Positions 4,658-46,241 of a stretch of DNA of 64,000 bases are shown here, piece by piece. Every line of letters starts with the position of its first letter. Position 1 is the first letter of the stretch. Made by a program: the position numbers and the translations under genes. The notes beneath the pieces are model-generated. The model was not told the origin of the DNA. It was given only the letters and a program-made list of their open reading frames with translations, and searched no databases. The DNA is from Candidatus Omnitrophota bacterium (GTDB lineage Bacteria; Omnitrophota; Gorgyraeia; Ghiorseimicrobiales; Ghiorseimicrobiaceae): positions 133,708-197,707 of the forward strand of contig JAUXSB010000037.1 in assembly GCA_030681595.1 (NCBI GenBank), in the 5' to 3' direction.

Positions 4658-4688
4658 AACCAGTAACACCTACGCGGTGTTACTGGTT
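4658..4688. repeat. REP-like palindrome AACCAGTAACACC-TACGC-GGTGTTACTGGTT
   Basis: Perfect 13-bp arms. The core GTAACACC-TACGC-GGTGTTAC is identical to the copy at 9294-9314. It lies about 7 nt upstream of the MFS start codon. Confidence 0.7.
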
Positions 4689-6279: not shown

Positions 6280-6306
6280 CCATGTGCACTACCGCAGTGC
6301 ACATGG
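6280..6306. repeat. REP-like palindrome CCATGTGCACT-ACCGC-AGTGCACATGG
   Basis: Perfect 11-bp arms. Intergenic between the ACP and cyclase genes, about 12 nt upstream of the cyclase ATG. Confidence 0.65.
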
Positions 6307-9293: not shown

Positions 9294-9314
9294 GTAACAC
9301 CTACGCGGTGTTAC
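9294..9314. repeat. REP-like palindrome GTAACACC-TACGC-GGTGTTAC
   Basis: Same core as at 4658-4688. About 13 nt upstream of the KS-beta start, between the two KS genes. Confidence 0.65.
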
Positions 9315-9320
9315 TAATGG

Positions 9321-10592
9321 TTATGCTTTAAATCGTTTCATAATTAATGATGAGTGTATTCCTGAAAAACCACTGCTTGTTTTTAGCATGGTATTTACTT
9401 TTTTTTCGCGCGCGACATTAGGAATATAATCCAAGTCGCATAAAGGGTCTTTTTCTTCCTGATTTATTGTCGGCGGTAAAATATTATTTTGAAAAATCAT
9501 ACAACCAATAGTAAGCTCTATCGCGTTTGCCGCGGCCAAGGGGTGTCCGATCATTGACTTAAGCGAGCTGATCGGCAGTTTATAGGCATAATCGCCGAAA
9601 ACTATTTTATAGGCGCTGGTTTCAAAGATATCGTTCATGCGTGTGGATGAGCCGTGGGCGTTAATATAGTCAATATCAGTTGGTTTAGTCACAGCGTCTT
9701 TAAGCGCAAGAGTAATGCAACTTGCCATAGCGGTTCCATCAGCCGGCAGGTCAGTCATGTGAAAGGCATTGCAACTGGTGCCAAAGCCGATGACCTCGGC
9801 ATAGATATGGGCGTTACGCAAAAGTGCATGTTGTAATTCTTCCAGGATTAATATTCCCGCGCCTTCGGAAAGCACAAAACCGTCGCGCTTTTTATCAAAC
9901 GGGCGTGATGCCGCTTCAGGATTGTTATTGTGTACAGATAAGACATTTACTACGTCAAAGGCGCCGAAGGTTATCGGCGTAAGCGGGGCTTCAGCCGCAC
10001 CGCAAATCATGATATCATGTTCGCCGTCTTGGATAGTTTCTAAACCAAAGCCCAGCGAGTCGGTTCCGGCAGTGCATCCGGTAGAAATTGTATTACAGAC
10101 TCCTTTTAAGCCATACTTAGCCGAGATTTCGATGGATGGCGTATTAAACATTGCCGCGTCATAAAGATCAGGCCTAACTTTCGACGGGTCAATTTCGTGT
10201 TTTCCATTTTCGGTGACTAAAGCGAATTCTTCTTCCATATATTTTGTTCCGCAGATAGCATTGGCAAGGCAGACGCCGATACGCTCGGTATTTTCTTTTG
10301 AGAAGATAAGCCCAGAGTCATTTACCGCCATATAAGCCGCCGCTACTCCAAATTGGACATATCTATCCATGCGCATTGCTTCATCGTGGGTTAGGCCGAG
10401 CTTAAAAGGATTAAAATCCCGGACCTCCGCGGCAATTTTCGTGTTAAATACTGATACATCAAATCCGTCAACTAATCTTACGCCGGATTTACCGGAAATA
10501 AAAGCTTGATAAGCTTCTTCTTTGCCGATACCGTTAGGTGAAATTACGCCAATGCCTGTTATAGCTACTCTTCTTTTTTTCATGATATCCAT
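9321..10592 (-). CDS. Beta-ketoacyl-ACP synthase (KS-alpha-like, catalytically intact)
   Basis: Active-site Cys in STGCTAGTDS, plus the His motifs NAHGSST and MIGHPL. 423 aa. The likely start is the second Met (MKKRRVAITGIG). Confidence 0.8.
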   Translation of the reverse strand: MDIMKKRRVAITGIGVISPNGIGKEEAYQAFISGKSGVRLVDGFDVSVFNTKIAAEVRDFNPFKLGLTHDEAMRMDRYVQFGVAAAYMAVNDSGLIFSKENTERIGVCLANAICGTKYMEEEFALVTENGKHEIDPSKVRPDLYDAAMFNTPSIEISAKYGLKGVCNTISTGCTAGTDSLGFGLETIQDGEHDIMICGAAEAPLTPITFGAFDVVNVLSVHNNNPEAASRPFDKKRDGFVLSEGAGILILEELQHALLRNAHIYAEVIGFGTSCNAFHMTDLPADGTAMASCITLALKDAVTKPTDIDYINAHGSSTRMNDIFETSAYKIVFGDYAYKLPISSLKSMIGHPLAAANAIELTIGCMIFQNNILPPTINQEEKDPLCDLDYIPNVAREKKVNTMLKTSSGFSGIHSSLIMKRFKA

Positions 10593-10631
10593 AACTTTAC
10601 ATTTTAAGCATTGCTTAAAATGTAAAGTTAT
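10591..10631. repeat. 41-bp perfect palindrome (AACTTTACATTTTAAGCA arms), copy 2
   Basis: Identical to 116-156 except for the central base. Abuts the KS-alpha start codon. Confidence 0.7.
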
Positions 10632-11245
10632 TTGCTTGGTTCTCCTTCTTGTCCTTCGATCTGTGATACTTTAAATACGATATTCCCTCCATCCGGGCAG
10701 GTTACCGTATCAATAGAATCCGGATTAGGCATAAAGAAAAATTTTGCTCCGAAGTTAAGCGCAAAGAGCGCGGGAAACGCGGTATGAAATGCCGCGCCGC
10801 AGAACCCGGGGATACATTTAAGCCCGGTGGTTTCCCATTTGTCTCCTACCTTATATCCAAAGTGGCATTTACCGGTTGCTTTAACAACTTCGATAACCAT
10901 TTTTTTAGGTTTCGGGCCTTTATGAGTTTCATCCTTAGGTATGAATTGGACTTTATCGCTGCCCTTTTCAAAAATCTCTGCCTTAAATTCCAATTTTCCA
11001 CCGTCGGGGCAGGTTACTTTTAAAGAGCGTTGGTTATCCATAAACGGAAATTTTGCCCCAAAACTTAAGGCATAGATTATCGGAAATAAAACGTGGGCTA
11101 ATCCAAGGCAGAAAAACTCCGGCGGATGGGTAAAATCATCTAAGATTAGCTCATCGCCGATTTTATAGCCGTGATAGCAATGGCCGAAGACATTGGTTAC
11201 GGTGAGTTTTAGTCTTGGGAATGGGGAATCTATTTTTTTATCCAT
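10628..11245 (-). CDS. Tandem-duplicated TIGR04076-family protein
   Basis: Two repeats each carry a CxxGHxxGD-type motif (GHCYHGYKIGDE...CPDGG; GKCHFGYKVGDK...CPDGG) and the ALFP/ALNFGAKF segments typical of TIGR04076. Confidence 0.5.
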   Translation of the reverse strand: MDKKIDSPFPRLKLTVTNVFGHCYHGYKIGDELILDDFTHPPEFFCLGLAHVLFPIIYALSFGAKFPFMDNQRSLKVTCPDGGKLEFKAEIFEKGSDKVQFIPKDETHKGPKPKKMVIEVVKATGKCHFGYKVGDKWETTGLKCIPGFCGAAFHTAFPALFALNFGAKFFFMPNPDSIDTVTCPDGGNIVFKVSQIEGQEGEPSK

Positions 11246-12283: not shown

Positions 12284-12562
12284 TTATTTCGGATAACCGT
12301 ATTTTTTATAATCAAATCCGCTTTTTTCTAACAATCGCACCATCATACTATAAAACGGCGACGGCACGTCAGAGAAAAAGGCGAAGATTACGTCTTGCTC
12401 TTCAACTTGGCCGGCATTACGCCTAAAGGCATTTTCCTCTGCCCTTTTAGTGACGACGCTTTCGGTAATCCGACGGTGAAAAACCGGAATCTTTTCAATC
12501 ATTGCCTTAAATTTTTGCTGAATCTCGCTATCCCAGTTCATTTTATCTTTTACGCAAACCAC
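12284..12562 (-). CDS. Small PCP_red-like (PF08369) domain protein
   Basis: W..E....KIPVFHRR...V..AEENA pattern resembles the protochlorophyllide-reductase C-terminal domain. 92 aa. Weak call. Confidence 0.3.
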   Translation of the reverse strand: MVCVKDKMNWDSEIQQKFKAMIEKIPVFHRRITESVVTKRAEENAFRRNAGQVEEQDVIFAFFSDVPSPFYSMMVRLLEKSGFDYKKYGYPK

Positions 12563-14043
12563 GACGTAACCAAAGACCTGCCTGTGGGGTTTAGGTCAAT
12601 GTTTACGTGCTTGGTTTGGGTGTATTCTAGGAGTCCTTCTTTGCCGAGTTCGCGGCCAAAACCACTTTCCTTGTATCCGCCAAAGGGCGCTTCGTTATAA
12701 AAGCCGCCGTAGGTATTTATCCAGACGGTTCCGCAGCGAAGTTGCGCTGCCACCTGATTTGCCCGGTTTAAATCTTTGGTCCAGACCATAGCTGCTAAGC
12801 CAAATTTTGTGTCATTGGCGATCTTAATTGCCTGATCTTGTCCGGAAAACTTAATGATAGATAATACCGGCCCAAAAATCTCTTCCTGCGCAATCCGCGC
12901 GTTATTATCCACATCTATAAATATCGTCGGCTCCAAATAAAACCCTTTTTCTAACCGTTTCCCACCTCCGAGGTGGGCAAGGGGGATGATGCCGCCAGAG
13001 ATGAGTTTGGCTTCTTTTTTACCGATTTCGATATAATCTAAAACGGTTTGGCGATGTTCTCTTGAGATAAGCGGGCCAAAGTCGGTATCATAAGATATGG
13101 CATTTCCGATTTTAAGTTTTTTGGTTTTGGCAACCAATAATTCTATAAATTTATCGTAAATTTTATCTTCTAAAATTAGGCGCGATCCGGCTGTGCACAT
13201 CTGTCCTTGATTCATGAATATTGCCGACATTGCCCCGCCCACTGCCGCCTCTATATCACAGTCGGCAAATACAATATTCGGGCTTTTGCCGCCTAATTCA
13301 AGAGAGAGTTTTTTGGTGCTGCCCGAAGCCATTTTCATTATTTCTTTTCCCGCAGTATTTCCTCCGGTAAAAGAAATCATATCTACGAGTTTGCTTTCGG
13401 TTAAGGTCGCGCCTACTTCCTTGCCTGTGCCGGTAATAATATTTACTACACCATTGGGTAAGCCCGCCTCTTGTATTATTTTGGCTAATTCTAAGCAGCT
13501 TAAGGATGCAAGTTGTGAAGGCTTAAAAACAACCGTATTCCCTAAAATAATTGCCGGTGCTATTTTCCAAGCGGCCATTAAAAATGGGTAATTCCATGGG
13601 ATAATCTGGCCGATGACGCCTACTGGCTCTTTGAGGGTAAAGCTTAATGCCGGATTATGAATCGGAATTGTTTCGCCTTTTATTTCGGTTGCGGCCGCGG
13701 CAAAGTATTCAAATGCAGATGCGGCAGTAGGTATATCAATAAAAGTAGTCTGTTTTATGGTTTTTCCGGTATCAAGTGATTCTAATTTAGCCAATTCGTC
13801 AGCCTTTTCTCTTATGAGTTGCGCGATTTTTTGAAGGTAAGGTGCTCGTTCAATAAGCGGCATTTTAGGCCAGTCGCCGGAGTCAAAAGCGAGCCTTGCC
13901 GCTTTAATTGCGGTTTCTGTATCGCGAGCGTCTGCCGCGGGAAATTCCGCTAGAATTTCGCCGGTTGAGGGATTAATGCTTGCAATGGCCTTGCCTGCGT
14001 TAACCCAAGTGTTGTCTATGTACATGTTATATTGTTTAAGCAT
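12550..14043 (-). CDS. NAD(P)+-dependent aldehyde dehydrogenase
   Basis: ALDH family. Catalytic Cys in GQMCTAGSR and Glu in ELGGKSP. 497 aa. Confidence 0.85.
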   Translation of the reverse strand: MLKQYNMYIDNTWVNAGKAIASINPSTGEILAEFPAADARDTETAIKAARLAFDSGDWPKMPLIERAPYLQKIAQLIREKADELAKLESLDTGKTIKQTTFIDIPTAASAFEYFAAAATEIKGETIPIHNPALSFTLKEPVGVIGQIIPWNYPFLMAAWKIAPAIILGNTVVFKPSQLASLSCLELAKIIQEAGLPNGVVNIITGTGKEVGATLTESKLVDMISFTGGNTAGKEIMKMASGSTKKLSLELGGKSPNIVFADCDIEAAVGGAMSAIFMNQGQMCTAGSRLILEDKIYDKFIELLVAKTKKLKIGNAISYDTDFGPLISREHRQTVLDYIEIGKKEAKLISGGIIPLAHLGGGKRLEKGFYLEPTIFIDVDNNARIAQEEIFGPVLSIIKFSGQDQAIKIANDTKFGLAAMVWTKDLNRANQVAAQLRCGTVWINTYGGFYNEAPFGGYKESGFGRELGKEGLLEYTQTKHVNIDLNPTGRSLVTSWFA

Positions 14044-14054
14044 ATTTAATCTCC

Positions 14055-14095
14055 ATAACTTTACATTTTAAGCAATGCTTAAAATGTAAAGTTAT
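14055..14095. repeat. 41-bp perfect palindrome, copy 3
   Basis: Identical to 116-156. It fills the intergenic space, followed by GGAG (RBS) and the ALDH ATG. Confidence 0.7.
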
Positions 14096-15120
14096 TTAAC
14101 GGGAGCTAGCTTCCATAAATCGAAAATACGGTTAAAAGGAGCATACCAGCGCGAGAGTTTTGCCATATCGCCTTTTAATTTAAGCTTACGTTGGGTTGCC
14201 GCGGCAAAAGGATCAAGTCTTCTGTCAAAAACCATGCGCCAGACTGCCGCAGGCCCTGAAATTACGAACTCCGCGTCTTCGTCATTGGTTACGGTATCAA
14301 TCTTACCTTTATTAAAATGAAAATTATAGATTCTGTTTTCTTCGTCAACCTTGATAGCAAGTTTTGTGGTTAAATTAAGCGCCTCCCCCTTTTCCTTTAC
14401 TTCCTTATCCTCATTAACCAAAGAAACTATCTTTTTGATATGCTCTTGCGAAAACAAATCGTATTTTTCACCAATGTCCACCCCCGCCGGATTGAGCGCG
14501 CCCGAACAGCGTTCGGTCAGGCGGGAGTCGGGTTGGCCCGCGGTGGAATTTACTGTTGATGCCATTAAGGCGATGTTTACTTTACAGGCTTCTTCTAATG
14601 CTTCTGCCCAAGAGAATGCTTCTTTAAAATTTGAGCCTACTGAAATTATGCCATGTTTTTTTAAGACAACGATGTTGCTTAGGCTTAGCGCTTCTAAAAC
14701 CGGCAAAACATTTGTTACAACCGGGCCATCCTGTTCAATCACCGGTATATTCGATAGATAAAGGCGCGCTTCATAGCTGAATATATCCAATGTGTTAAAT
14801 TTAGCGTAAAAGGCAGTGGTGAAATTAGGATGGGCATGAATAACCGCGCCAACTTGTTCATTTTTATACGCGCCTAAATGCATAGCGATTTCTGAAGTCG
14901 GCTTATGTGTTGTTTCTTCAAGCGGCACACCGTTTTTATCTACCGGGATAATTTCATCTTTTTCTAAATACCCTAAATAGGCATTATGCGCGGTGACTAA
15001 AAATTTATCCTTATCTATGCGTAAAGAAATATTTCCGCAAGGCCCGTTGATAAAGGAACGATTATGCAGTTCTTTTGCCCAGAAAATTATTTCTTCTTTT
15101 TGTTCTAAAAAATATTTCAT
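14092..15120 (-). CDS. Class-II aldolase/adducin-domain protein fused to a C-terminal SCP2-like domain; candidate 5-deoxyribulose/methylthioribulose-1-P aldolase of a DHAP shunt
   Basis: N-terminal aldolase_II motifs (AVIHAHPNFTTAF). C-terminal SCP2-like region (FVISGPAAVWRMVFD...LKLKGDMAKL). The inter-domain linker carries an in-frame GC-rich repeat insert at 14496-14537. Confidence 0.6.
   Translation of the reverse strand: MKYFLEQKEEIIFWAKELHNRSFINGPCGNISLRIDKDKFLVTAHNAYLGYLEKDEIIPVDKNGVPLEETTHKPTSEIAMHLGAYKNEQVGAVIHAHPNFTTAFYAKFNTLDIFSYEARLYLSNIPVIEQDGPVVTNVLPVLEALSLSNIVVLKKHGIISVGSNFKEAFSWAEALEEACKVNIALMASTVNSTAGQPDSRLTERCSGALNPAGVDIGEKYDLFSQEHIKKIVSLVNEDKEVKEKGEALNLTTKLAIKVDEENRIYNFHFNKGKIDTVTNDEDAEFVISGPAAVWRMVFDRRLDPFAAATQRKLKLKGDMAKLSRWYAPFNRIFDLWKLAPVK
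14496..14537. repeat. GC-rich ~42-bp element (GCGCGCCCGAACAGCGTTCGGTCAGGCGGGAGTCGGGTTGGC) inside a CDS
   Basis: Near-identical copy at 45394-45435 in intergenic DNA, 38 of 42 bases matching. Contains the hairpin CCGAAC..GTTCGG. Strongly GC-rich against AT-rich flanks. Confidence 0.6.
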
Positions 15121-21145: not shown

Positions 21146-21249
21146 TGGGCAGGAGAGGGTTCGAACCTCTGAAGCATTGCGCAGCAGATTTCAAGTGTCC
21201 GCCACTACTTCTTTGGCGGACAGTCGCCAACGCTTTGTGGCGACTGCCC
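21146..21249 (-). ncRNA. 104-nt tRNA-like structured RNA of unknown class
   Basis: Minus-strand RNA with a 5' GGGCAGU pairing a 3' CCUGCCC-A, and a perfect T-arm AGAGG-UUCGAAC-CCUCU. Two long internal hairpins (6-bp and 7-bp stems) fit no canonical D or anticodon arm. No CCA is encoded. Confidence 0.3.
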
Positions 21250-21387
21250 TTAAGTTACCTCAAGGCTTGGACTATCTCATCACCATAGCTTTATGTTTCT
21301 TAGCTTTAGGCGGTAGGCGCTTAGTCTCTGCACCTTCACCCCTTCTTGTTTTCACAAGAAAGCAGGGGCGCTTGGCTCAGGATTGCC

Positions 21388-22092
21388 CTAAGATTTTAGG
21401 GTTTCCCTGAATTCACCTACTTTTTCATCTAACCTTTCGGTAAGATGCTGCATTTTATACAGTCTGCCCCCTTTGGCCGCTTGGGTACCTGCCCAATCTT
21501 TTATAAATTTATCTGTCCAACTTTTAATTAATCCAAGTAATCGCTTATCATTATAGCGGATATGCACTAATCCATAAAGTAATTTTCTTTTGCTTAAATT
21601 AAGATTACCTATTCGTATATAAGGTTTTGTAAATTGGTTTAATGGTATTTGTGTTATTTTGTGCCAGTAGATTTTTAACTGATCAATGTTTTGATATGAA
21701 TAAGCATATAAATAAATTCGCAATCGTTCTTCTTGAACGCCGCAAATCTCGCGTAAGAATCGCAGGAAAACTTTTATCATTTCTGGATTGCTGTTAGCAA
21801 AGTCTACTGTATTACCGTGGAATGTCCCTTCTGCCCAATAGAGCATTAATCCAGATATTTTTAGGTTTTGTTCTAAAATACTAAGTTTTTCTTTGGTTTT
21901 AAATTGCGGTTTATGTTTATTGTTGAGATAGTTTGCCTCTGATAATGACCGCCTAGGTATTTTATTTTTATTCATAAAGTTATATAAGGACCAAACGGAA
22001 ATGCCTAACCTATGCGAAACTTCTTCAAGATTAAATTGATTATTCCAGTATAGGTTTTTAATTTTCGCTATGTTGGGGTTTTTGTTTGGCAT
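21388..22092 (-). CDS. HTH plus LAGLIDADG-like putative homing-endonuclease-like protein
   Basis: N-terminal HTH (LEEVSHRLGISVWSLYNFM). The segment GLMLYWAEGTF...KVFLRFLREI resembles a LAGLIDADG motif with its following helix. Located between tRNA genes. Weak call. Confidence 0.35.
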   Translation of the reverse strand: MPNKNPNIAKIKNLYWNNQFNLEEVSHRLGISVWSLYNFMNKNKIPRRSLSEANYLNNKHKPQFKTKEKLSILEQNLKISGLMLYWAEGTFHGNTVDFANSNPEMIKVFLRFLREICGVQEERLRIYLYAYSYQNIDQLKIYWHKITQIPLNQFTKPYIRIGNLNLSKRKLLYGLVHIRYNDKRLLGLIKSWTDKFIKDWAGTQAAKGGRLYKMQHLTERLDEKVGEFRETLKS

Positions 22093-22176: not shown

Positions 22177-23040
22177 TCAACTACATTTTTTAATTGCCGC
22201 GGGGATTTTGCTTACAATATCCGAGGCAATTAAACCCATTTGTGTTTTTTCTTCTGTAGCTAAATCTCCGGCTTTACCGTGGATGTAAACCGCGTATTTT
22301 GCGGCGCTAAACGCGTCAAGCCCTTGCGCTAAAAACGCGCCGATGATTCCGCTTAATACATCGCCCGAGCCGGCTGTGGCCATCCCGGGATTACCGGTTT
22401 TATTTATATAGGTATTTTTTTTATCCGCGACAATCGTATTGTGTCCTTTTAGCACAACCGTAATATTATAATCAGAAGCTACTCTTTTTGCAATAGTTTT
22501 ACGGTTTTTGTTTATTTTGGCTATGCTTAGGCCTGTTAGCCTTGACATTTCCCCTACATGCGGCGTAATTATTTTCGTAACCCATGACCCATGACCCATG
22601 ACCTGTAATATATCTAAATGGCCGACTAAAGCATTAATGGCGTCGGCATCGATAACCATAGGTTTTGAGCAATTTTTTATAATTTTTCGGATTAATTCTT
22701 GCGTAGGATTATTCTGCGAAAGGCCCGGCCCGATAATCAAGAGGTCCGTTTTTTCATCAATAAATTTTATAATTTCCGGATACGCATTTATGCTTAAAGC
22801 CTTATCTTTAGTTTCGGCTAAAGGTTTTAGCATTAGTTCCTTTATTCTCCGGGCAAAGGCGTTATGTAATGAGCGCGGGATGCCCAAGGTAACTAATCCG
22901 GCGCCCGAGCGCAAAGTAGATTCTCCCGTAAGGATTGCCGCGCCCGTTAAGCCGCAGGAGCCGGCTAAAATAAATACGCGCCCAAAATCTCCTTTATGAG
23001 CGCTAGCCTTTCTTCGTAATAATTGCGCTGGCAACTGCAT
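22177..23040 (-). CDS. ADP-dependent NAD(P)H-hydrate dehydratase (YjeF C-terminal/Nnr family)
   Basis: Carbohydrate-kinase-like fold with GPGL, HxGE and GSGDVLSG motifs. 287 aa. Confidence 0.75.
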   Translation of the reverse strand: MQLPAQLLRRKASAHKGDFGRVFILAGSCGLTGAAILTGESTLRSGAGLVTLGIPRSLHNAFARRIKELMLKPLAETKDKALSINAYPEIIKFIDEKTDLLIIGPGLSQNNPTQELIRKIIKNCSKPMVIDADAINALVGHLDILQVMGHGSWVTKIITPHVGEMSRLTGLSIAKINKNRKTIAKRVASDYNITVVLKGHNTIVADKKNTYINKTGNPGMATAGSGDVLSGIIGAFLAQGLDAFSAAKYAVYIHGKAGDLATEEKTQMGLIASDIVSKIPAAIKKCS

Positions 23041-23416
23041 AATCTTTAATGTGTGAAATAGATACCGAAATCTTATATTTTTTATTATTTTTAGCTAAGC
23101 TTATCAAAGGTTTACCTGTTTGGTTATTTGCTACTTCTATATCCTTAAAAGCAAATTTACCTCCGCCAGCAGCTTTAATTACCGCTTCTTTTGCGGCAAA
23201 CCTGCCGGCTAAATGCTCATAAACAAAGCGTTTACTCTTGGCATAGGCGATTTCTTTGTCGGTAAAGACGCGGTTTAAAAAAAGGTCGCCCCATTTTTTG
23301 ATTGATTGCTTTAGCCGCTTTACTTCTACGATATCTATTCCGGTACCGATTATTTCCATTCTAAATACGATTACACCGATCAATAAGCCGGTAAGGCAAT
23401 GGTTTTGGTTTTCCAC
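23003..23416 (-). CDS. acpS: Holo-[ACP] synthase (4'-phosphopantetheinyl transferase AcpS)
   Basis: IIGTGIDIVEV...GRFAAKEAVIKA motifs. The true start is probably the internal Met near 23359 (MEIIGTGID). Confidence 0.75.
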   Translation of the reverse strand: MENQNHCLTGLLIGVIVFRMEIIGTGIDIVEVKRLKQSIKKWGDLFLNRVFTDKEIAYAKSKRFVYEHLAGRFAAKEAVIKAAGGGKFAFKDIEVANNQTGKPLISLAKNNKKYKISVSISHIKDYAVASAIITKKG

Positions 23417-23519
23417 TTAGCCAAAGCCATAAGCCGGTAAGGCAATGGTTTGGTTTTCCACTTAGCCAAAGCCATAAGCCGGTAAGGCAATGGTTTTGGT
23501 TTTCCACTTAGCCAAAGCC
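23383..23519. repeat. Tandem direct repeat, 3 copies of a 45-46-bp unit (ATAAGCCGGTAAGGCAATGGTTTTGGTTTTCCACTTAGCCAAAGCC)
   Basis: Three head-to-tail copies between pdxJ and acpS. They differ only by one T in the T-run. Confidence 0.85.
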
Positions 23520-23528
23520 ATAAATAGG

Positions 23529-24254
23529 TTATACAGATTTGATTAATTCCAGCATTTCTTTGACCGCATTTTCTAAACCCACGAATACCGCTTTAGTGAT
23601 TATCGAATAGCCTATGTTTAATTCTTCGATTTCGGGAATACCGGCTATAAGCTTTGCATTCTTATAATCAAGGCCATGGCCGGCAAAAACCGAGAGCCCG
23701 ATTTTTTTTGCATGTTGCGCGGCTTTGATTATTTGAATCAGCTCTTTACCTTTTTCGTCATTGGTGGCTTGCGCATATTTGCCTGTATGTAATTCTACGG
23801 CATCAGCGTTAATGGATTTGGCGGTTTCAACCTGGTAGATATTCGGTTCGATAAAAAGGCTCACCATGATGCCGTTTGATTTTAGCTTATTTACGGTGTT
23901 TTTAACGCGCGATTTCAGCGAAACTATATCTAAGCCGCCTTCGGTAGTCAGCTCTTCTCTTTTTTCCGGAACCAAAGTAGCCTGGTCAGGCTTGGTTTTT
24001 AAGGCTATAGATACAATCTGCGGATTTATTGACATTTCCAGATTTAGATGCGTGGTTATGTTTTTTCTTAAATCTCTTAAGTCTTCGTCATTAATATGGC
24101 GCCGGTCTTCGCGTAAATGTACCACAATTCCGTCTGCGCCAGCGCCTTCTACTATGCGCGCGGCCTCTAGCAAGTCAGGGTAATTGCCTTTGCGCAGCTG
24201 TCTCAGGCTTGCAATATGGTCAATGTTAACACCTAAACGTTTTTTTTCCGGCAT
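23529..24254 (-). CDS. pdxJ: Pyridoxine 5'-phosphate synthase
   Basis: LGVNIDHIASLRQ N-terminus and PdxJ TIM-barrel motifs. 241 aa. Confidence 0.85.
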   Translation of the reverse strand: MPEKKRLGVNIDHIASLRQLRKGNYPDLLEAARIVEGAGADGIVVHLREDRRHINDEDLRDLRKNITTHLNLEMSINPQIVSIALKTKPDQATLVPEKREELTTEGGLDIVSLKSRVKNTVNKLKSNGIMVSLFIEPNIYQVETAKSINADAVELHTGKYAQATNDEKGKELIQIIKAAQHAKKIGLSVFAGHGLDYKNAKLIAGIPEIEELNIGYSIITKAVFVGLENAVKEMLELIKSV

Positions 24255-32003: not shown

Positions 32004-32800
32004 ACGGCCTCCATTATGCTTGTTATCGCTTCTAAAGCGACAGAACCTTTTTCAAGTTCCATCAGCGGTTTTCCTTCAAGAGAAAGCTTTAATACCTCTT
32101 CATCGTTAGGTACAAATTTTAAATCATCAATTTTTATCTTGGAAAATTCTTTTTTTATTCCTTCTTTGTCTTGGCTATCCTTTGTGCGGTTGACTAAAAC
32201 GATAAATTTTTTTATTTCAATGTTTAACTCTTTTACTAAATCATAAATTCTCTTAGCGGATTTTATGCCCACTGGCGTAGGGTCAGAAATAATCAGGAGG
32301 CAGTCTGCTTTTCTGGTTGTGCGGCGCGAAAGGTGCTCAAGGCCTGCTTCATTATCAATCACCACAAACTTATAGTCTGAAGCAATTTTTGAATTGATGT
32401 TACGCAGGGTATTATTTGCGTAGCAATAACATCCGGGGCCTTCCGGCCTTCCCATAGCTAAGAGGTCTAAAGAGCTGGATTCTTCAATCGCAGATTGTAC
32501 CCGGTATTCAATATACCTGTCTTTGGTCATCCCCGCCGGAATTTTATCAATATTTTTGCTAATTTCGTCAATAATCGCGCCGATATTCTCTTTAGGGGTA
32601 ATTCCTAATACATCACCAAGGTTACTATTCGGGTCGGCATCAATAGCTAAAATGGGGGTTTTTTTATTTTCTGCTAGATACCTTATGACCAGGCCTGCGA
32701 TAGTGGTTTTGCCCGTTCCGCCTTTTCCTGCAACTGCGATAGTATATGACATGTAACCCTTAACTGTTTCCACACCGCGGGGGTGTGTAACCACGTACAC
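31994..32800 (-). CDS. cooC: CooC/AcsF-type nickel-insertion ATPase (MinD/ParA family)
   Basis: Deviant Walker A AVAGKGGTGKTT. The likely true start is MSYTIAVAGKGG near 32752, as the upstream residues overlap a GC-rich palindrome. Confidence 0.7.
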   Translation of the reverse strand: MYVVTHPRGVETVKGYMSYTIAVAGKGGTGKTTIAGLVIRYLAENKKTPILAIDADPNSNLGDVLGITPKENIGAIIDEISKNIDKIPAGMTKDRYIEYRVQSAIEESSSLDLLAMGRPEGPGCYCYANNTLRNINSKIASDYKFVVIDNEAGLEHLSRRTTRKADCLLIISDPTPVGIKSAKRIYDLVKELNIEIKKFIVLVNRTKDSQDKEGIKKEFSKIKIDDLKFVPNDEEVLKLSLEGKPLMELEKGSVALEAITSIMEAVCR

Positions 32801-32811
32801 CCCCGCGGTGT
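32772..32811. repeat. GC-rich perfect palindrome ACACCGCGGGGGTGT-GTAACCACGT-ACACCCCCGCGGTGT
   Basis: 15-bp perfect arms, intergenic between RACo and the cooC-like gene. Shares CACGT/GTAAC motifs with the other REP-like elements. Confidence 0.65.
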
Positions 32812-32817
32812 ATATGG

Positions 32818-43353: not shown

Positions 43354-43358
43354 ATTAT

Positions 43359-43402
43359 ATTGAGAAATGTAAAACTAACGGAACTTCTTCGCATACGAAA
43401 TT
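43359..43402. repeat. 44-nt repeated intergenic element ATTGAGAAATGTAAAACTAACGGAACTTCTTCGCATACGAAATT (copy 1, gatA-gatB spacer)
   Basis: A second copy at 45252-45295 matches about 39 of 44 bases. It contains the internal inverted repeat GTAAAACTA/TAGTTTTAC. The adjacent GCGTACCTCTATAA segment also recurs, at 45558-45571. Confidence 0.6.
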
Positions 43403-43421
43403 CCAGTAGTTTTACGTACCT

Positions 43422-44894
43422 CTATAATTTGGGTTTTATTTTTCTCCAATTTGTTTGGCTTTCATAAGCAAATGCTGCTTTAAATAGCATTTCTTCGTCA
43501 AATGGCTTGGCAATTATCTGCAGTCCTACGGGTAATTTCTCTTTTGTAAAGCCGCAGGGAATAGAAATCGCCGGAACGCCCGCTAAATTTACCGAAATCG
43601 TATATATATCCGAAAGGTACATTTTTAGAGGGTCGGTGGCCTTTTCTCCTATTTTAAAGGCCGGTGTGGGAGAAGTCGGGGTAATAATACAGTCAATTTC
43701 TTTAAAGGCCGTATCGAAATCACGTTTTATTAAAGTGCGCACCTTTTGCGCCCGAAGATAATAGGCGTCATAGTAGCCGCTGGATAAGACATACGTTCCT
43801 AATATAATACGCCGCTTTGCTTCGTTTCCGAAACCTTCACCGCGGCTGTTCTTATACATATCGATTAATCCGGAGCTGTTCATTTGGCGAAAGCCATATT
43901 GAACTCCGTCAAAACGCGCCAGGTTTGAACTTGCTTCGGCGGTGGCGACAATGTAATAAACCGCGACCGCATATTCGGTATGCGGCAGCGATATTTCGAT
44001 GAATTTAGCACCTTTGGTTTTTAAGGTTGCTATCGCTTCATCCATAGCAGCCTTAACTTCATTATCCATGCCGTGCGTAAAATACTCTTTAGGTAAGCCC
44101 ACGCGTAGATTCTTTATTTCTCCGTTTAGGGATTTCGTAAAGTCCGGAACTTCAATGTTGGCGGAGGTGGAATCTTTAGGGTCGTAGCCGGAAATAATAT
44201 TCATCATCACGGCGCAATCACGCACATCCTTAGTGATAGGGCCGATTTGGTCAAGGCTTGAGGCAAAGGCAATCAATCCGTAGCGCGAAACCCTGCCGTA
44301 GGTCGGCTTAAGCCCAACTACCCCGCAGAATGCCGCCGGCTGCCGGATTGAACCGCCGGTGTCTGAACCAAGGCTTATTATTGTTTCATCCGCCGCTACT
44401 GCCGCGGCAGACCCTCCGCTTGATCCGCCGGGAACGCATTCGAGATTATGCGGGTTTCTCGTTGGGCCATAAGATGAATTTTCCGTTGATGAGCCAAAGG
44501 CAAATTCGTCCATATTGGTCTTACCCCAAAGGATTGCCCCGGCATCCTTTAGCCGCCGTATTACTTCAGCATCATATGGCGGTTTAAACCCGGAGAGGAT
44601 TTTAGAAGCACAGGTCGTTTCGTCATCTTTTACGCAGATATTATCTTTAATAGAAACCGGTATTCCCGAAAGGGGCCCGGAGCGGATAGTAAGGTTACAG
44701 TTTTCTGTTTGCGGCTTTGGCCAATGGAAGCCAAACCACTGCCCTCTGGCTTGCGGCTTCTTAGCAAAGGCATGGACTTTTTTCTCTACTGCTTCAACGC
44801 GTTTGGCTAAAGAGCTAACGAGCTCTTCTGTGCCATGCTTTTGCCCGGTAATTTCGCCGGCGGTGAGGGAAAAAAGGTCTTTTTTGTTATCCAT
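43422..44894 (-). CDS. gatA: Glutamyl-tRNA(Gln) amidotransferase subunit A
   Basis: Amidase signature family ([12 protein letters not shown]). 490 aa. Confidence 0.9.
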
Positions 44895-44909: not shown

Positions 44910-45197
44910 TTAGTCAATTACCTTGGGGACTTTAAAAAAGTTCCCTTCTTTTGAAGGAGCGTTTTTAAGCGTATCTTCCGTTTTGAGTGAAGGAGTTAAT
45001 TCGTCCTGCCTAAAAACATTATGCAGGGGCAGTACATGGCTGGTCGGTTCAATCCCGCTGATATCTAACGCCTTTAGCTTATCAATAAAATCAACAATTT
45101 TTTGAAGCTGAATAGCAAGGATTTCCAGTTCTTCGTCGTTTAGTTTTATTCTCGCCAAATCCGCGGTATATTTTACTTCACTTTTCGATATGGGCAT
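44910..45197 (-). CDS. gatC: Asp/Glu-tRNA amidotransferase subunit C
   Basis: 95-aa GatC-like ORF, positioned 5' of gatA in the conserved gatCAB order. Confidence 0.75.
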   Translation of the reverse strand: MPISKSEVKYTADLARIKLNDEELEILAIQLQKIVDFIDKLKALDISGIEPTSHVLPLHNVFRQDELTPSLKTEDTLKNAPSKEGNFFKVPKVID

Positions 45198-45249: not shown

Positions 45250-45251
45250 CT

Positions 45252-45295
45252 ATTGAGAAACGTAAAACTAATGGGATTTCTTCGCACACGAAATT
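45252..45295. repeat. 44-nt repeated intergenic element, copy 2
   Basis: ATTGAGAAACGTAAAACTAATGGGATTTCTTCGCACACGAAATT, matching 43359-43402. Confidence 0.6.
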
Positions 45296-45393
45296 TTTTG
45301 CCGTCTATTTCATCTTACGTCTTTAGGTGTTACGCTCCATAGAAGATTGTCGCTACACCTCCGCCGTAATTCCTCATAGACCCGCCAGACCGA

Positions 45394-45435
45394 CCGCGCC
45401 CGAACGACGTTCGGTCGGGCGGGAGTCGGGCTGGC
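45394..45435. repeat. GC-rich ~42-bp element, copy 2 (CCGCGCCCGAACGACGTTCGGTCGGGCGGGAGTCGGGCTGGC)
   Basis: Matches 14496-14537. Embedded in a roughly 190-bp GC-rich island in the gatC-upstream intergenic region. Followed by the inverted repeat CCAATGGT...ACCATTGG. Confidence 0.6.
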
Positions 45436-45661
45436 TTTTGCCAATGGTTCGACTACGCTCACCATTGGCACTGAGCGGAGTCCTGAGCTTGTCGAAGGAC
45501 GAAGTCGAAGTGCCAAAAAATTTCTTATTGTGCGCTTTCATAAATTCCATTATTTTTGCGTACCTCTATAAGATGCGGGTATTTTTTAGTTCTTGTCCTT
45601 ACGCCGCAGAAGTAGTTTTTGAAAGCGCTTTCAGAAATAATGGGATTTTTGTCCTTAGCCA

Positions 45662-45690: not shown

Positions 45691-45724
45691 TATTAAAGAT
45701 ACGAAAAACGTTCTTTAAAAATCA

Positions 45725-45830
45725 ATCAGCAAAGGTAAACTATCTGAAAGGGTAGGGCGCAAAGCCGCGAGTCTAACTCTCTATAAATAATGGAGATACG
45801 ATTGTCGGGCTGCCGTATTCCAGCGTTCGT
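45725..45830 (+). ncRNA. Candidate c-di-GMP-I (GEMM) riboswitch aptamer
   Basis: AAAGGUAAACUAUCUGAAAGGGUAGGGCGCAAAGCCGCGAGUCUAA parallels the Vibrio Vc2 aptamer segment AGGGCAAACCAUUCGAAAGAGUGGGACGCAAAGCCUCCGGCCUAA. Shared elements: GNRA-loop hairpin, GCAAAGCC junction, CUAA. A second hairpin and an intrinsic terminator follow. Confidence 0.45.
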
Positions 45831-45873: not shown

Positions 45874-45947
45874 CGTTTGTCCGCCGCATATCGCGGCGGA
45901 TGCCTTTGCTGGTCATTTTCTTAGAAATGAGCTAGGTGGAGGCAAAA

Positions 45948-46241
45948 ATGAAAAGAATAACGTTAACTGGGGTGTTACTGGTAACGATACTGATTATTAG
46001 CAGTGGATTAGTTTATGCGGGCGATAGCCAGACAATCGGCATTTCCTGCACTATTCCTTTAATTCCCGGTGTAAATGCCCCGCTTAATACGACAGAAGTA
46101 CCGGCTATAGTAGAAGAAGATATTAGTTTTCAGGCCGAAGCAGCAGCTGTGGAAACAGCCAATGAAGGCAAGCAGTTGCAGATAGTAGAAAAACAAAAAG
46201 GTTCGGATAATTTAGAGCTTTATACTTATTATCAAAAATAA
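45948..46241 (+). CDS. Small secreted protein (signal peptide)
   Basis: AGGTGGAGG RBS 7 nt before the ATG. MKRITLTGVLLVTILIISSGLVYAGDS looks like a signal peptide. 97 aa. Confidence 0.45.
   Translation: MKRITLTGVLLVTILIISSGLVYAGDSQTIGISCTIPLIPGVNAPLNTTEVPAIVEEDISFQAEAAAVETANEGKQLQIVEKQKGSDNLELYTYYQK

Follow-up and report, generated by a model that had tools for sequence, protein, structure and literature searches.

The closest described counterparts of the repeat reported here are the Rickettsia palindromic elements (RPEs) and the repetitive extragenic palindromes (REPs). RPEs are approximately 100-150 bp in length, are present in dozens of copies belonging to ten families, are restricted to Rickettsia and end in CGTC (PMC3733652). 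REPs of the GTAG type are found in the PVC (Planctomycetes, Verrucomicrobia and Chlamydiae) superphylum, form subfamilies with complementary stem changes and have occasional intragenic copies (PMC3733652). The E. coli transposase TnpA_REP binds REPs in single-stranded form, and its cleavage and joining of strands leaves no duplications (PMC3333891), and REPs are themselves insertion hot spots, being the targets of several insertion sequence (IS) families (PMC1525189). Here we describe a GC-rich repeat of 54 nt in a 64,000-nt stretch of contig JAUXSB010000037.1 (hereafter the window) from a Candidatus Omnitrophota bacterium, one copy of which lies in frame in a gene for a class II aldolase fused to an SCP2 domain. 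On balance, we lean towards regarding this repeat as an imperfectly palindromic, non-coding mobile element without a transposase of its own, present in at least three copies in a single Omnitrophota genome.

A preliminary description of the window reported a 42-bp repeat in two places. The quoted 42-mer was found at 14496-14537 and its relative at 45394-45435, so the repeat is real; however, the two are identical at 37/42 positions rather than 38/42, and the full repeat measures 54 nt. A 35-nt core, searched with up to 3 mismatches, occurs at exactly 2 sites in the window, against 0.00 expected from 100 dinucleotide shuffles. The similarity found by a repeat search within the window spans 55 nt (85% identity), and these limits were trimmed to 54 nt by aligning a third copy, found on a different contig (L017; related sequences are denoted by L numbers). 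Across the aligned three copies the element runs CCCGCC...YTGG, giving two copies in 64 kb and one elsewhere. The copies and the gene that hosts the first of them are as follows.

14483..14536, + strand: copy A (54 nt), reading CCCGCC...GGGTTGG on the + strand
45381..45434, + strand: copy B of the 54-nt element, intergenic, a near-perfect palindrome with approximately 24 bp per arm
L017, 818-871: third copy of the 54-nt element
14092..15120, - strand: host gene of copy A, class II aldolase fused to SCP2 (Aldolase_II at aa 10-182, SCP2 at aa 242-322)

Copies A and B are identical at 46/54 positions and copies B and L017 at 53/54. Both ends of the element are the same to the base in all three copies, which sit at unrelated sites. 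The ends, CCAGACCGAC...GTCGGGCTGG, form a 9/10 inverted repeat, with four extra bases (CCCG) on the left end. The hairpin CCGAAC/GTTCGG that had been noted previously is present, but it is merely the apex of an imperfect palindrome of approximately 24 bp. The element is one hairpin, not two sub-terminal ones, and it carries no terminal CGTC or GTAG tag, its sole CGTC lying in the apical loop. A check of the RNA fold, which the preliminary description had proposed, confirmed strong folding: the 54-mer of copy B gave -34.1 (+ strand) and -31.7 kcal/mol (- strand), and its 55-mer had z about -4 for both strands. The corresponding values for copy A were -29.2 on the + strand and -18.3 on the - strand, which is the sense strand, leaving the latter approximately 13 kcal/mol less stable than copy B. 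Copy A departs from the form shared by B and L017 at 8 positions, 5 of them GC to AT changes. It is therefore a decayed copy that has drifted toward AT and lost much of its sense-strand hairpin. Both the drift and the lost stability fit an older copy drifting in a linker, and there has possibly also been pressure against a strong mRNA hairpin. Copy B and the L017 copy are open in each of the six reading frames, and the length is exactly 18 codons (54 = 18 x 3). This length, together with the GC-richness and survival only at tolerant sites, means that the insert stays in frame, and in a tolerant part of a gene it adds merely 18 residues.

Copy A is translated on the - strand as Q196-G213 (QPDSRLTERCSGALNPAG), in the linker between the Aldolase_II and SCP2 domains. 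The protein is 342 aa long here and 324 aa without the insert, compared with 330-332 aa in close orthologues. Its sole segment with a predicted local distance difference test (pLDDT) score below 50 is aa 191-215, comprising the native linker and the insert (AlphaFold model, 19 homologues). The translated segment is absent from 18/18 aligned aldolase-SCP2 orthologues (39-86% identity), upholding the earlier suggestion that it is an in-frame, lineage-specific insertion and not a conserved linker. Deletion of the 54 nt gives ...TVNSTAG/VDIGEKYDLF (the slash marks the junction), matching ...VSTAGVDTVKKYDLF and ...TVSTAGVDTVKKYDLF of L003 and L005. The same deletion rebuilds a hairpin, TCCACC-GCGGG-GGTGGA on the coding strand, which has its counterpart in the orthologues. 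A net insertion of 30 nt (10 residues) read from a MAFFT protein alignment was considered and rejected, since realignment based on the hairpin gives a clean 54 nt; that first boundary estimate was misleading because the linker is hypervariable. The window protein is identical to MDP1853817.1, encoded on a 300-kb contig of a Candidatus Omnitrophota metagenome-assembled genome (MAG), and the exact insert-bearing protein of 342 aa is on record both from NCBI and from a Logan assembly, which makes an assembly artefact unlikely. It had also been proposed that the element explains the aldolase-SCP2 fusion. This does not hold, as element-free homologues down to approximately 39% identity already have both domains; judged from these proteins, the fusion is ancient and the element did not create it.

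Separately, one of the more distant homologues (L035, protein P0014, 53% identity) has a GC-rich, partly palindromic insertion of its own, of approximately 13 residues (peptide RPRPSPERPDERRGV). It lies at a different position, in the aldolase domain, and is Pro/Arg-rich like the translated 54-mer but not alignable to it.

The third copy lies full-length in the 3' end of kdsA on L017 (43% GC). It is found four codons before the stop, beyond the DAHP_synth_1 domain (aa 11-272), and its reading orientation and frame are those of copy A: ...AVYPVRD-QPDSRPTERRSGAVGLAG-RSS-stop. The KdsA orthologue P0040 (81% identity) ends ...AIYPVRD/RSS-stop, the exact remainder after removal of the 18 codons, and these are also absent from all other listed KdsA orthologues (265-281 aa). 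Exact empty sites therefore exist in orthologues for two of the three insertions (aldolase-SCP2 and kdsA). The element-bearing KdsA is identical to MDP1853330.1, encoded on a 187-kb contig of an Omnitrophota MAG, apparently a contig other than that of the window. As the accessions MDP1853817.1 and MDP1853330.1 are fewer than 500 numbers apart and both belong to an Omnitrophota MAG, we infer that the L017 copy comes from the same MAG as the window, which would place at least three copies in one genome. The preliminary description had likened the repeat to the selfish elements of Rickettsia, and a further copy in another gene, in the same frame and with an exact empty site in an orthologue, bears out that comparison. 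In these two genes the insertions are harmless.

The surroundings of the kdsA copy hold a further repeat: L017 709-720 and 872-883 form a perfect 12-nt inverted repeat (CCCCGTTAGAGA / TCTCTAACGGGG) that brackets 151 nt; the kdsA stop, a 7-bp hairpin and the 54-mer all fall between the two arms, one of which is kdsA coding sequence. Displacement of the kdsA C-terminus by an inversion at this repeat was rejected, as P0040 shows ...YPVRDRSS-stop to be ancestral.

A closer inspection of site A revealed a small REP-like hairpin, TCCACC-CCCGC-GGTGGA, whose loop is interrupted by copy A at the junction with the stem.

14477..14482: interrupted REP-like hairpin, left arm TCCACC
14537..14547: interrupted REP-like hairpin, loop CCCGC (14537-14541) and right arm GGTGGA (14542-14547)

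The junction at this site is ambiguous by 5 nt, as the target loop CCCGC equals the first five bases of the element. The apparent CCCGC repeat is not counted as a duplication because those five bases are conserved in the element itself. No target-site duplication was found at B (ATAGA / CTTTT) or at L017 (CCTA / TCTC). Insertion 3' of a fixed target pentanucleotide, in the style of IS608, was considered and rejected, since B and L017 share no flank. All three copies are inside a hairpin or within 5 nt of one: A is inside, the L017 copy is 2 nt from the 7-bp hairpin, and copy B is 5 nt from a second hairpin at 45440-45469 (GCCAATGGT...ACCATTGGC). Given that 10% of window positions qualify, three out of three gives p ~0.001, for a criterion that was chosen after seeing the data.

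The hairpin interrupted by copy A belongs to a family with the architecture stem-ACC-[C/T][A/C]CGC-GGT-stem. A strict scan counted 6 perfect REP-like hairpins over the window (0.01 in shuffles) and 0 over the ten more distant gatA loci L019-L028. Aldolase-SCP2 orthologues with 70% identity or more all have a perfect or near-perfect palindrome in the linker; L034 and L035, which are more distant, lack one. On the coding strand these linker hairpins read as follows.

L003 and L005: ACCGTGTCAACC-GCGGG-GGTTGACACGGT
L001: CGTCTCAGCCC-CCG-GGGCTGAGACG
L030: TATCAACC-TACGC-GGTTGATA
L031: ACCAATACCCACCC-CAG-GGGTGGGTATTGGT
L032: TTCAACC-CCCGC-GGTAGAA
L033: TTCCACC-CCCGC-GGTGGAA

The stems vary between genomes yet stay paired, and the 5-nt loop is seen in both orientations. 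This may reflect compensatory evolution, correction of the palindrome, or replacement by the current REP variant of each genome. Small hairpins containing GTAG (GTAGACC-TACGC-GGTCTAC) occur in L003, L030 and L033, and the small hairpins of this lineage agree with what has been published on GTAG-type REPs and REPtrons, the latter being Y1 transposase genes flanked by hairpins (PMC3733652). The remaining small hairpins in the window are listed here.

4658..4688, + strand: intergenic REP-like hairpin, AACCAGTAACACC-TACGC-GGTGTTACTGGTT, of the family targeted at site A
6280..6306, - strand: solo hairpin CCATGTGCAC-TGCGGTA-GTGCACATGG, at the position of a Y1 locus in relatives
9294..9314, + strand: intergenic REP-like hairpin, GTAACACC-TACGC-GGTGTTAC, with an orthologous copy in L001
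12961..12977: REP-like hairpin CCCACC-TCCGA-GGTGGG, in frame in the aldehyde dehydrogenase open reading frame (ORF) 12550..14043 (- strand)
32771..32812: two REP-like hairpins with opposite loop orientation, a dimer-like pair, CACACC-loop-GGTGTG and TACACC-CCCGC-GGTGTA

The aldehyde dehydrogenase hairpin lies in a 10-codon segment that the window shares with L003 and L004 and that L001 lacks; in L003 (~6548) and L004 (~2240) the hairpin reads TAGACC-TACGC-GGTCTA. After aldolase-SCP2, aldehyde dehydrogenase is the second gene here to carry such a repeat internally.

In two relatives the interval from the PP-binding gene to the cyclase gene, a shared syntenic position, holds a Y1_Tnp (RAYT-like) gene (L001, 18779-19520; L033, 15812-16510). 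The L001 gene is flanked by inverted small hairpins, ATTCCACC-CCCGC-GGTGGAAT, and not by the 54-mer; at the L033 gene one perfect REP-like hairpin was found, at the 3' end. The L001 protein passed the Pfam Y1_Tnp cutoff (36 bits, cutoff 23) and missed the NCBIfam RAYT cutoff (53 vs 80 bits). The equivalent position in the window has one hairpin only, as though recombination between flanking repeats had removed the transposase.

Copy B, at 184 nt upstream of gatC (44910..45197, - strand), occupies a locally GC-rich stretch of a divergent region with gatC on one side and a gene controlled by a cyclic di-GMP-I riboswitch on the other. It is embedded in a mosaic of repeats.

45291..45541: block of 251 nt carrying copy B and further hairpins, splitting a 69-nt palindromic repeat (R70) at its apex
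45251..45290, - strand: split R70 repeat, right half
45542..45570, - strand: split R70 repeat, left half
43358..43426, - strand: intact R70, the reference copy, where gatA and gatB meet

The block is bounded by AATTT on both sides, and approximately 370 nt including the block and copy B are absent from the syntenic relatives L019 and L020. R70 is a separate family, a 69-nt palindrome that is AT-richer, and pieces of it are also found between gatC and gatA in L018 (409-434, 518-580). The riboswitch (70 bits, 45724-45817, + strand) lies upstream of an ORF of 101 aa without a Pfam match (45936-46241), and its region is conserved in L019 and L020.

Further copies were sought more widely. A covariance model built from the three copies recovered three full-length matches (76-88 bits) and nothing else convincing in 288 kb comprising the window and relatives, and blastn-short found no diverged copies. 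A scan of metagenomes with a 20-mer core gave 12 matches, only one of which, L017, is real; the other 11 are chance matches on contigs of 58-75% GC with no similarity beyond the core. There were 0 matches in viral contigs. The peptides from all six frames of the element, searched against 5.8 billion proteins, gave nothing at E <=10, although peptides of 18 residues cannot reach significance in a collection of that size. Rfam gave no gathering-level match at either window site, the best permissive matches (E 0.9-2.8) being far below gathering scores. A foreign-origin RNA motif, the other possibility raised by the preliminary description, thus found nothing in its favour beyond Rfam noise, and the phage and plasmid collections, searched with the 251-nt site-B block, gave no match. 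Moreover, the apices of the REP-like hairpins of this genome are also GC-rich, so that GC-richness alone is no sign of foreign origin.

The element is best read as low-copy and non-autonomous. Rickettsia RPEs and intragenic REPs are its analogues, though not its relatives in sequence, and we infer an enzyme that mobilises it. It would move as single-stranded hairpin DNA, on which a hairpin-recognising recombinase would act in trans, and integration would take place where DNA is extruded as a hairpin. The likeliest candidate for such an enzyme is a Y1/HUH transposase (RAYT or IS200-like) resembling those that accompany the REP-like hairpins in this lineage. Several observations weigh against this reading. 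Only three copies are known, and movement has never been observed. No copy was found in approximately 225 kb from relatives, and a scan of the GTDB representative genomes for CGTTCGGTCNGGCGGGAGTCGGG gave 0 matches; the MAG is thus not one of the species representatives there, that collection has no close family member, and family-level properties are not derivable. The GTAG tag required by E. coli TnpA_REP is lacking. The match of CCCGC between element and target exists at one site only and could equally mean microhomology-driven copying. No flank on either strand is shared among the three copies, unlike in IS200/IS605 elements. Finally, no homologue of the Y1 transposase was found in the 64-kb window, where the conserved locus is down to the solo hairpin, and the 54-mer was not found in L001 or L033, nor seen flanking any Y1 gene.

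The main rival dispenses with a transposase: a fork stalled at a hairpin would allow the nascent strand to anneal via CCCGC elsewhere, copy and return, so that the repeat spread by replication template switching or by ectopic gene conversion. We regard this as possible but doubtful, in its general form and in this detail. The five-nucleotide identity between the left end of the element and the target loop at site A is as expected of such a process, as is the location of all three sites at or beside hairpins, and site B is a mosaic of nested palindromes. The orthologous REP-like hairpins, which change their stems while remaining paired and flip their loops, likewise suggest palindrome-correcting processes in the lineage, and the window has no Y1 homologue that would provide a transposase. 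However, ends that are identical to the base in three copies are not reproducible by random switches. In addition, the return junctions at B and L017 are without microhomology, and both empty sites are restored precisely, with no flanking bases lost or gained.

The mobile-element reading can also be carried further. The 54-mer and the REP-like hairpins may form one active system, in which a lineage-specific Y1/HUH enzyme would cleave and join at hairpin loops with CCCGC; we think this rather improbable. The 54-mer would then have been joined 5' of CCCGC at both donor and target, and the same enzyme could explain stems that remain perfect despite changes on both sides, flipped loops, and in-frame hairpins in at least two adjacent genes. 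If true, this would be hairpin-loop-specific integration that remodels protein linkers in frame, which is undescribed for RAYT or REP systems.

The remaining explanations, namely a fragment of a larger element, a selected function, bypassing and the assembly artefact dealt with above, are each unlikely. The first of these holds that the 54-mer is a fragment (perhaps a solo end or internal hairpin) of a larger hairpin-targeting IS or MITE (miniature inverted-repeat transposable element), for example one of the REP-targeting IS110 or IS3 families, or the 251-nt block. At B the 54-mer does lie inside that block, bounded by AATTT and splitting another palindrome, and REPs are targeted by several IS families (PMC1525189). 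However, site A and kdsA hold only the 54 nt, with exact empty sites, and the rest of the block recurs nowhere in the window, the relatives, or the plasmid and phage collections. Footprints would moreover not be expected to be identical and palindromic at independent sites, and we consider this origin improbable.

A sequence kept for its function is very unlikely, whether as an RNA or DNA signal (a regulator, processing or pause site) or as a peptide module, QPDSRxTERxSGA...AG. Copy B folds strongly and sits in a promoter or 5' region, and the two genic copies share orientation and frame; the latter agreement, however, is expected by chance in approximately 1/6 of cases. Compared with copy B, copy A has a much less stable sense strand (-18.3 vs -31.7 kcal/mol) and a translation that departs at 5 of 18 residues. 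The segment has no Rfam match, is found in no orthologue of either protein and is located in a disordered linker and a C-terminal tail.

GC-rich 'byp' inserts in yeast mitochondria are passed by translational bypassing. That the insert described here is likewise skipped, by programmed bypassing or by removal from the mRNA, is scarcely credible: a GC-rich hairpin within ORFs of an AT-richer genome is superficially like the bypass elements derived from mitochondrial GC clusters, but an insert whose length divides by three, and whose used frame is open in the two genic copies, needs no bypass, and 54 nt is far too small for a self-splicing intron. Nor was a take-off and landing codon pair seen, although no search was aimed at one.

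Read as a mobile element, the repeat is a clean case of a palindromic repeat tolerated by genes, of which few are on record, and it comes from an uncultured phylum, the Omnitrophota, with two exact empty sites and boundaries known to the base. It is unusually small, at 54 nt or 18 codons with all frames open, and it lies within a further intragenic hairpin repeat. Layers of selfish DNA that turn into protein sequence can therefore build up in flexible linkers and C-terminal tails. As regards annotation, an odd low-complexity insert in a conserved enzyme is accounted for, and such an insert is no evidence on the origin of a domain fusion. The REP-like hairpins, conserved in structure and not in sequence, located in coding DNA and beside a syntenic Y1 gene, may be the more interesting lead, as they concern how RAYT-type systems behave outside Proteobacteria.

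Three further features of the window were recorded. An AT-rich perfect palindrome of 49 nt (ATAACTTTACATTTTAAGCAATGCTTAAAATGTAAAGTTAT) is present in three copies that are 88-100% identical (110-158, 10585-10633 and 14049-14097), of which at least the third is intergenic; the family is possibly terminator-like. An apparent tRNA-Tyr(GTA) gene (21146-21494, - strand), not called by ARAGORN, contains a group I intron just after the anticodon (Rfam, 103 bits, 21248-21469). Lastly, three tandem copies of a 45-46-nt unit (ATAAGCCGGTAAGGCAATGGTTTTGGTTTTCCACTTAGCCAAAGCC...) occupy 23383-23523, between the ORFs 23003..23416 and 23529..24254.

How, then, does the element compare with systems already described? 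Like the RPEs of Rickettsia, it is palindromic and non-autonomous, occurs both between genes and in frame in unrelated housekeeping genes, and is translated as an extra peptide at tolerated positions (PMC10969869). Two unrelated genes carry it in frame, in the aldolase-SCP2 linker and the kdsA tail, and one copy is intergenic. Unlike the RPEs, it is only 54 nt long, has three known copies, belongs to Omnitrophota, and shows neither sequence similarity to them nor a CGTC or GTAG end tag. Neither end is CGTC and the host is not Rickettsia, and it is by these features, rather than by direct alignment to RPE sequences, that it is set apart from the RPE families.

With REPs and REPINs mobilised by RAYT (TnpA_REP), the element shares a GC-rich hairpin, the lack of target duplication and an occasional intragenic location at tolerated sites (PMC3733652, PMC3333891). 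REPtrons are present in the lineage, and the small hairpins of the type interrupted by copy A fit the REP family well. The 54-mer itself differs, being longer than REPs (20-40 bp), not a dimer of two self-palindromic REPs, apparently low in copy number (two in 64 kb and one on another contig) and without GTAG, and its copies were not seen in inverted orientation around a single-copy Y1 gene. Nor does it resemble the palindrome-associated transposable elements (PATEs) derived from IS200/IS605, as it has neither a conserved 5' target of 4-5 nt nor distinct end hairpins.

Bacterial MITEs such as Coxiella QMITE1, ERIC and BOX are similarly small and non-autonomous, with inverted-repeat ends and read-through of ORFs (PMC10969869; PMC5896051). 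The element has terminal inverted repeats of this kind. In contrast to classical MITEs, which derive from a recognisable IS, no target-site duplication is seen at any of the three sites and no IS is known as its parent. The REP-targeting ISs (IS1397/ISKpn1, IS621 and ISPpu9/10) resemble copy A in that they insert into a REP hairpin (PMC1525189). They are, however, 1-2 kb long and encode their own transposase, whereas the element is a 54-nt passenger. The GC clusters of yeast mitochondria are also short, GC-rich, palindromic and mobile in an AT-rich genome, and are occasionally found in coding sequence; they belong to a eukaryotic organelle, differ in sequence, and some are bypassed and not translated. 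Taken together, these comparisons place the element as a new, very small and apparently low-copy family within a known kind of selfish repeat.

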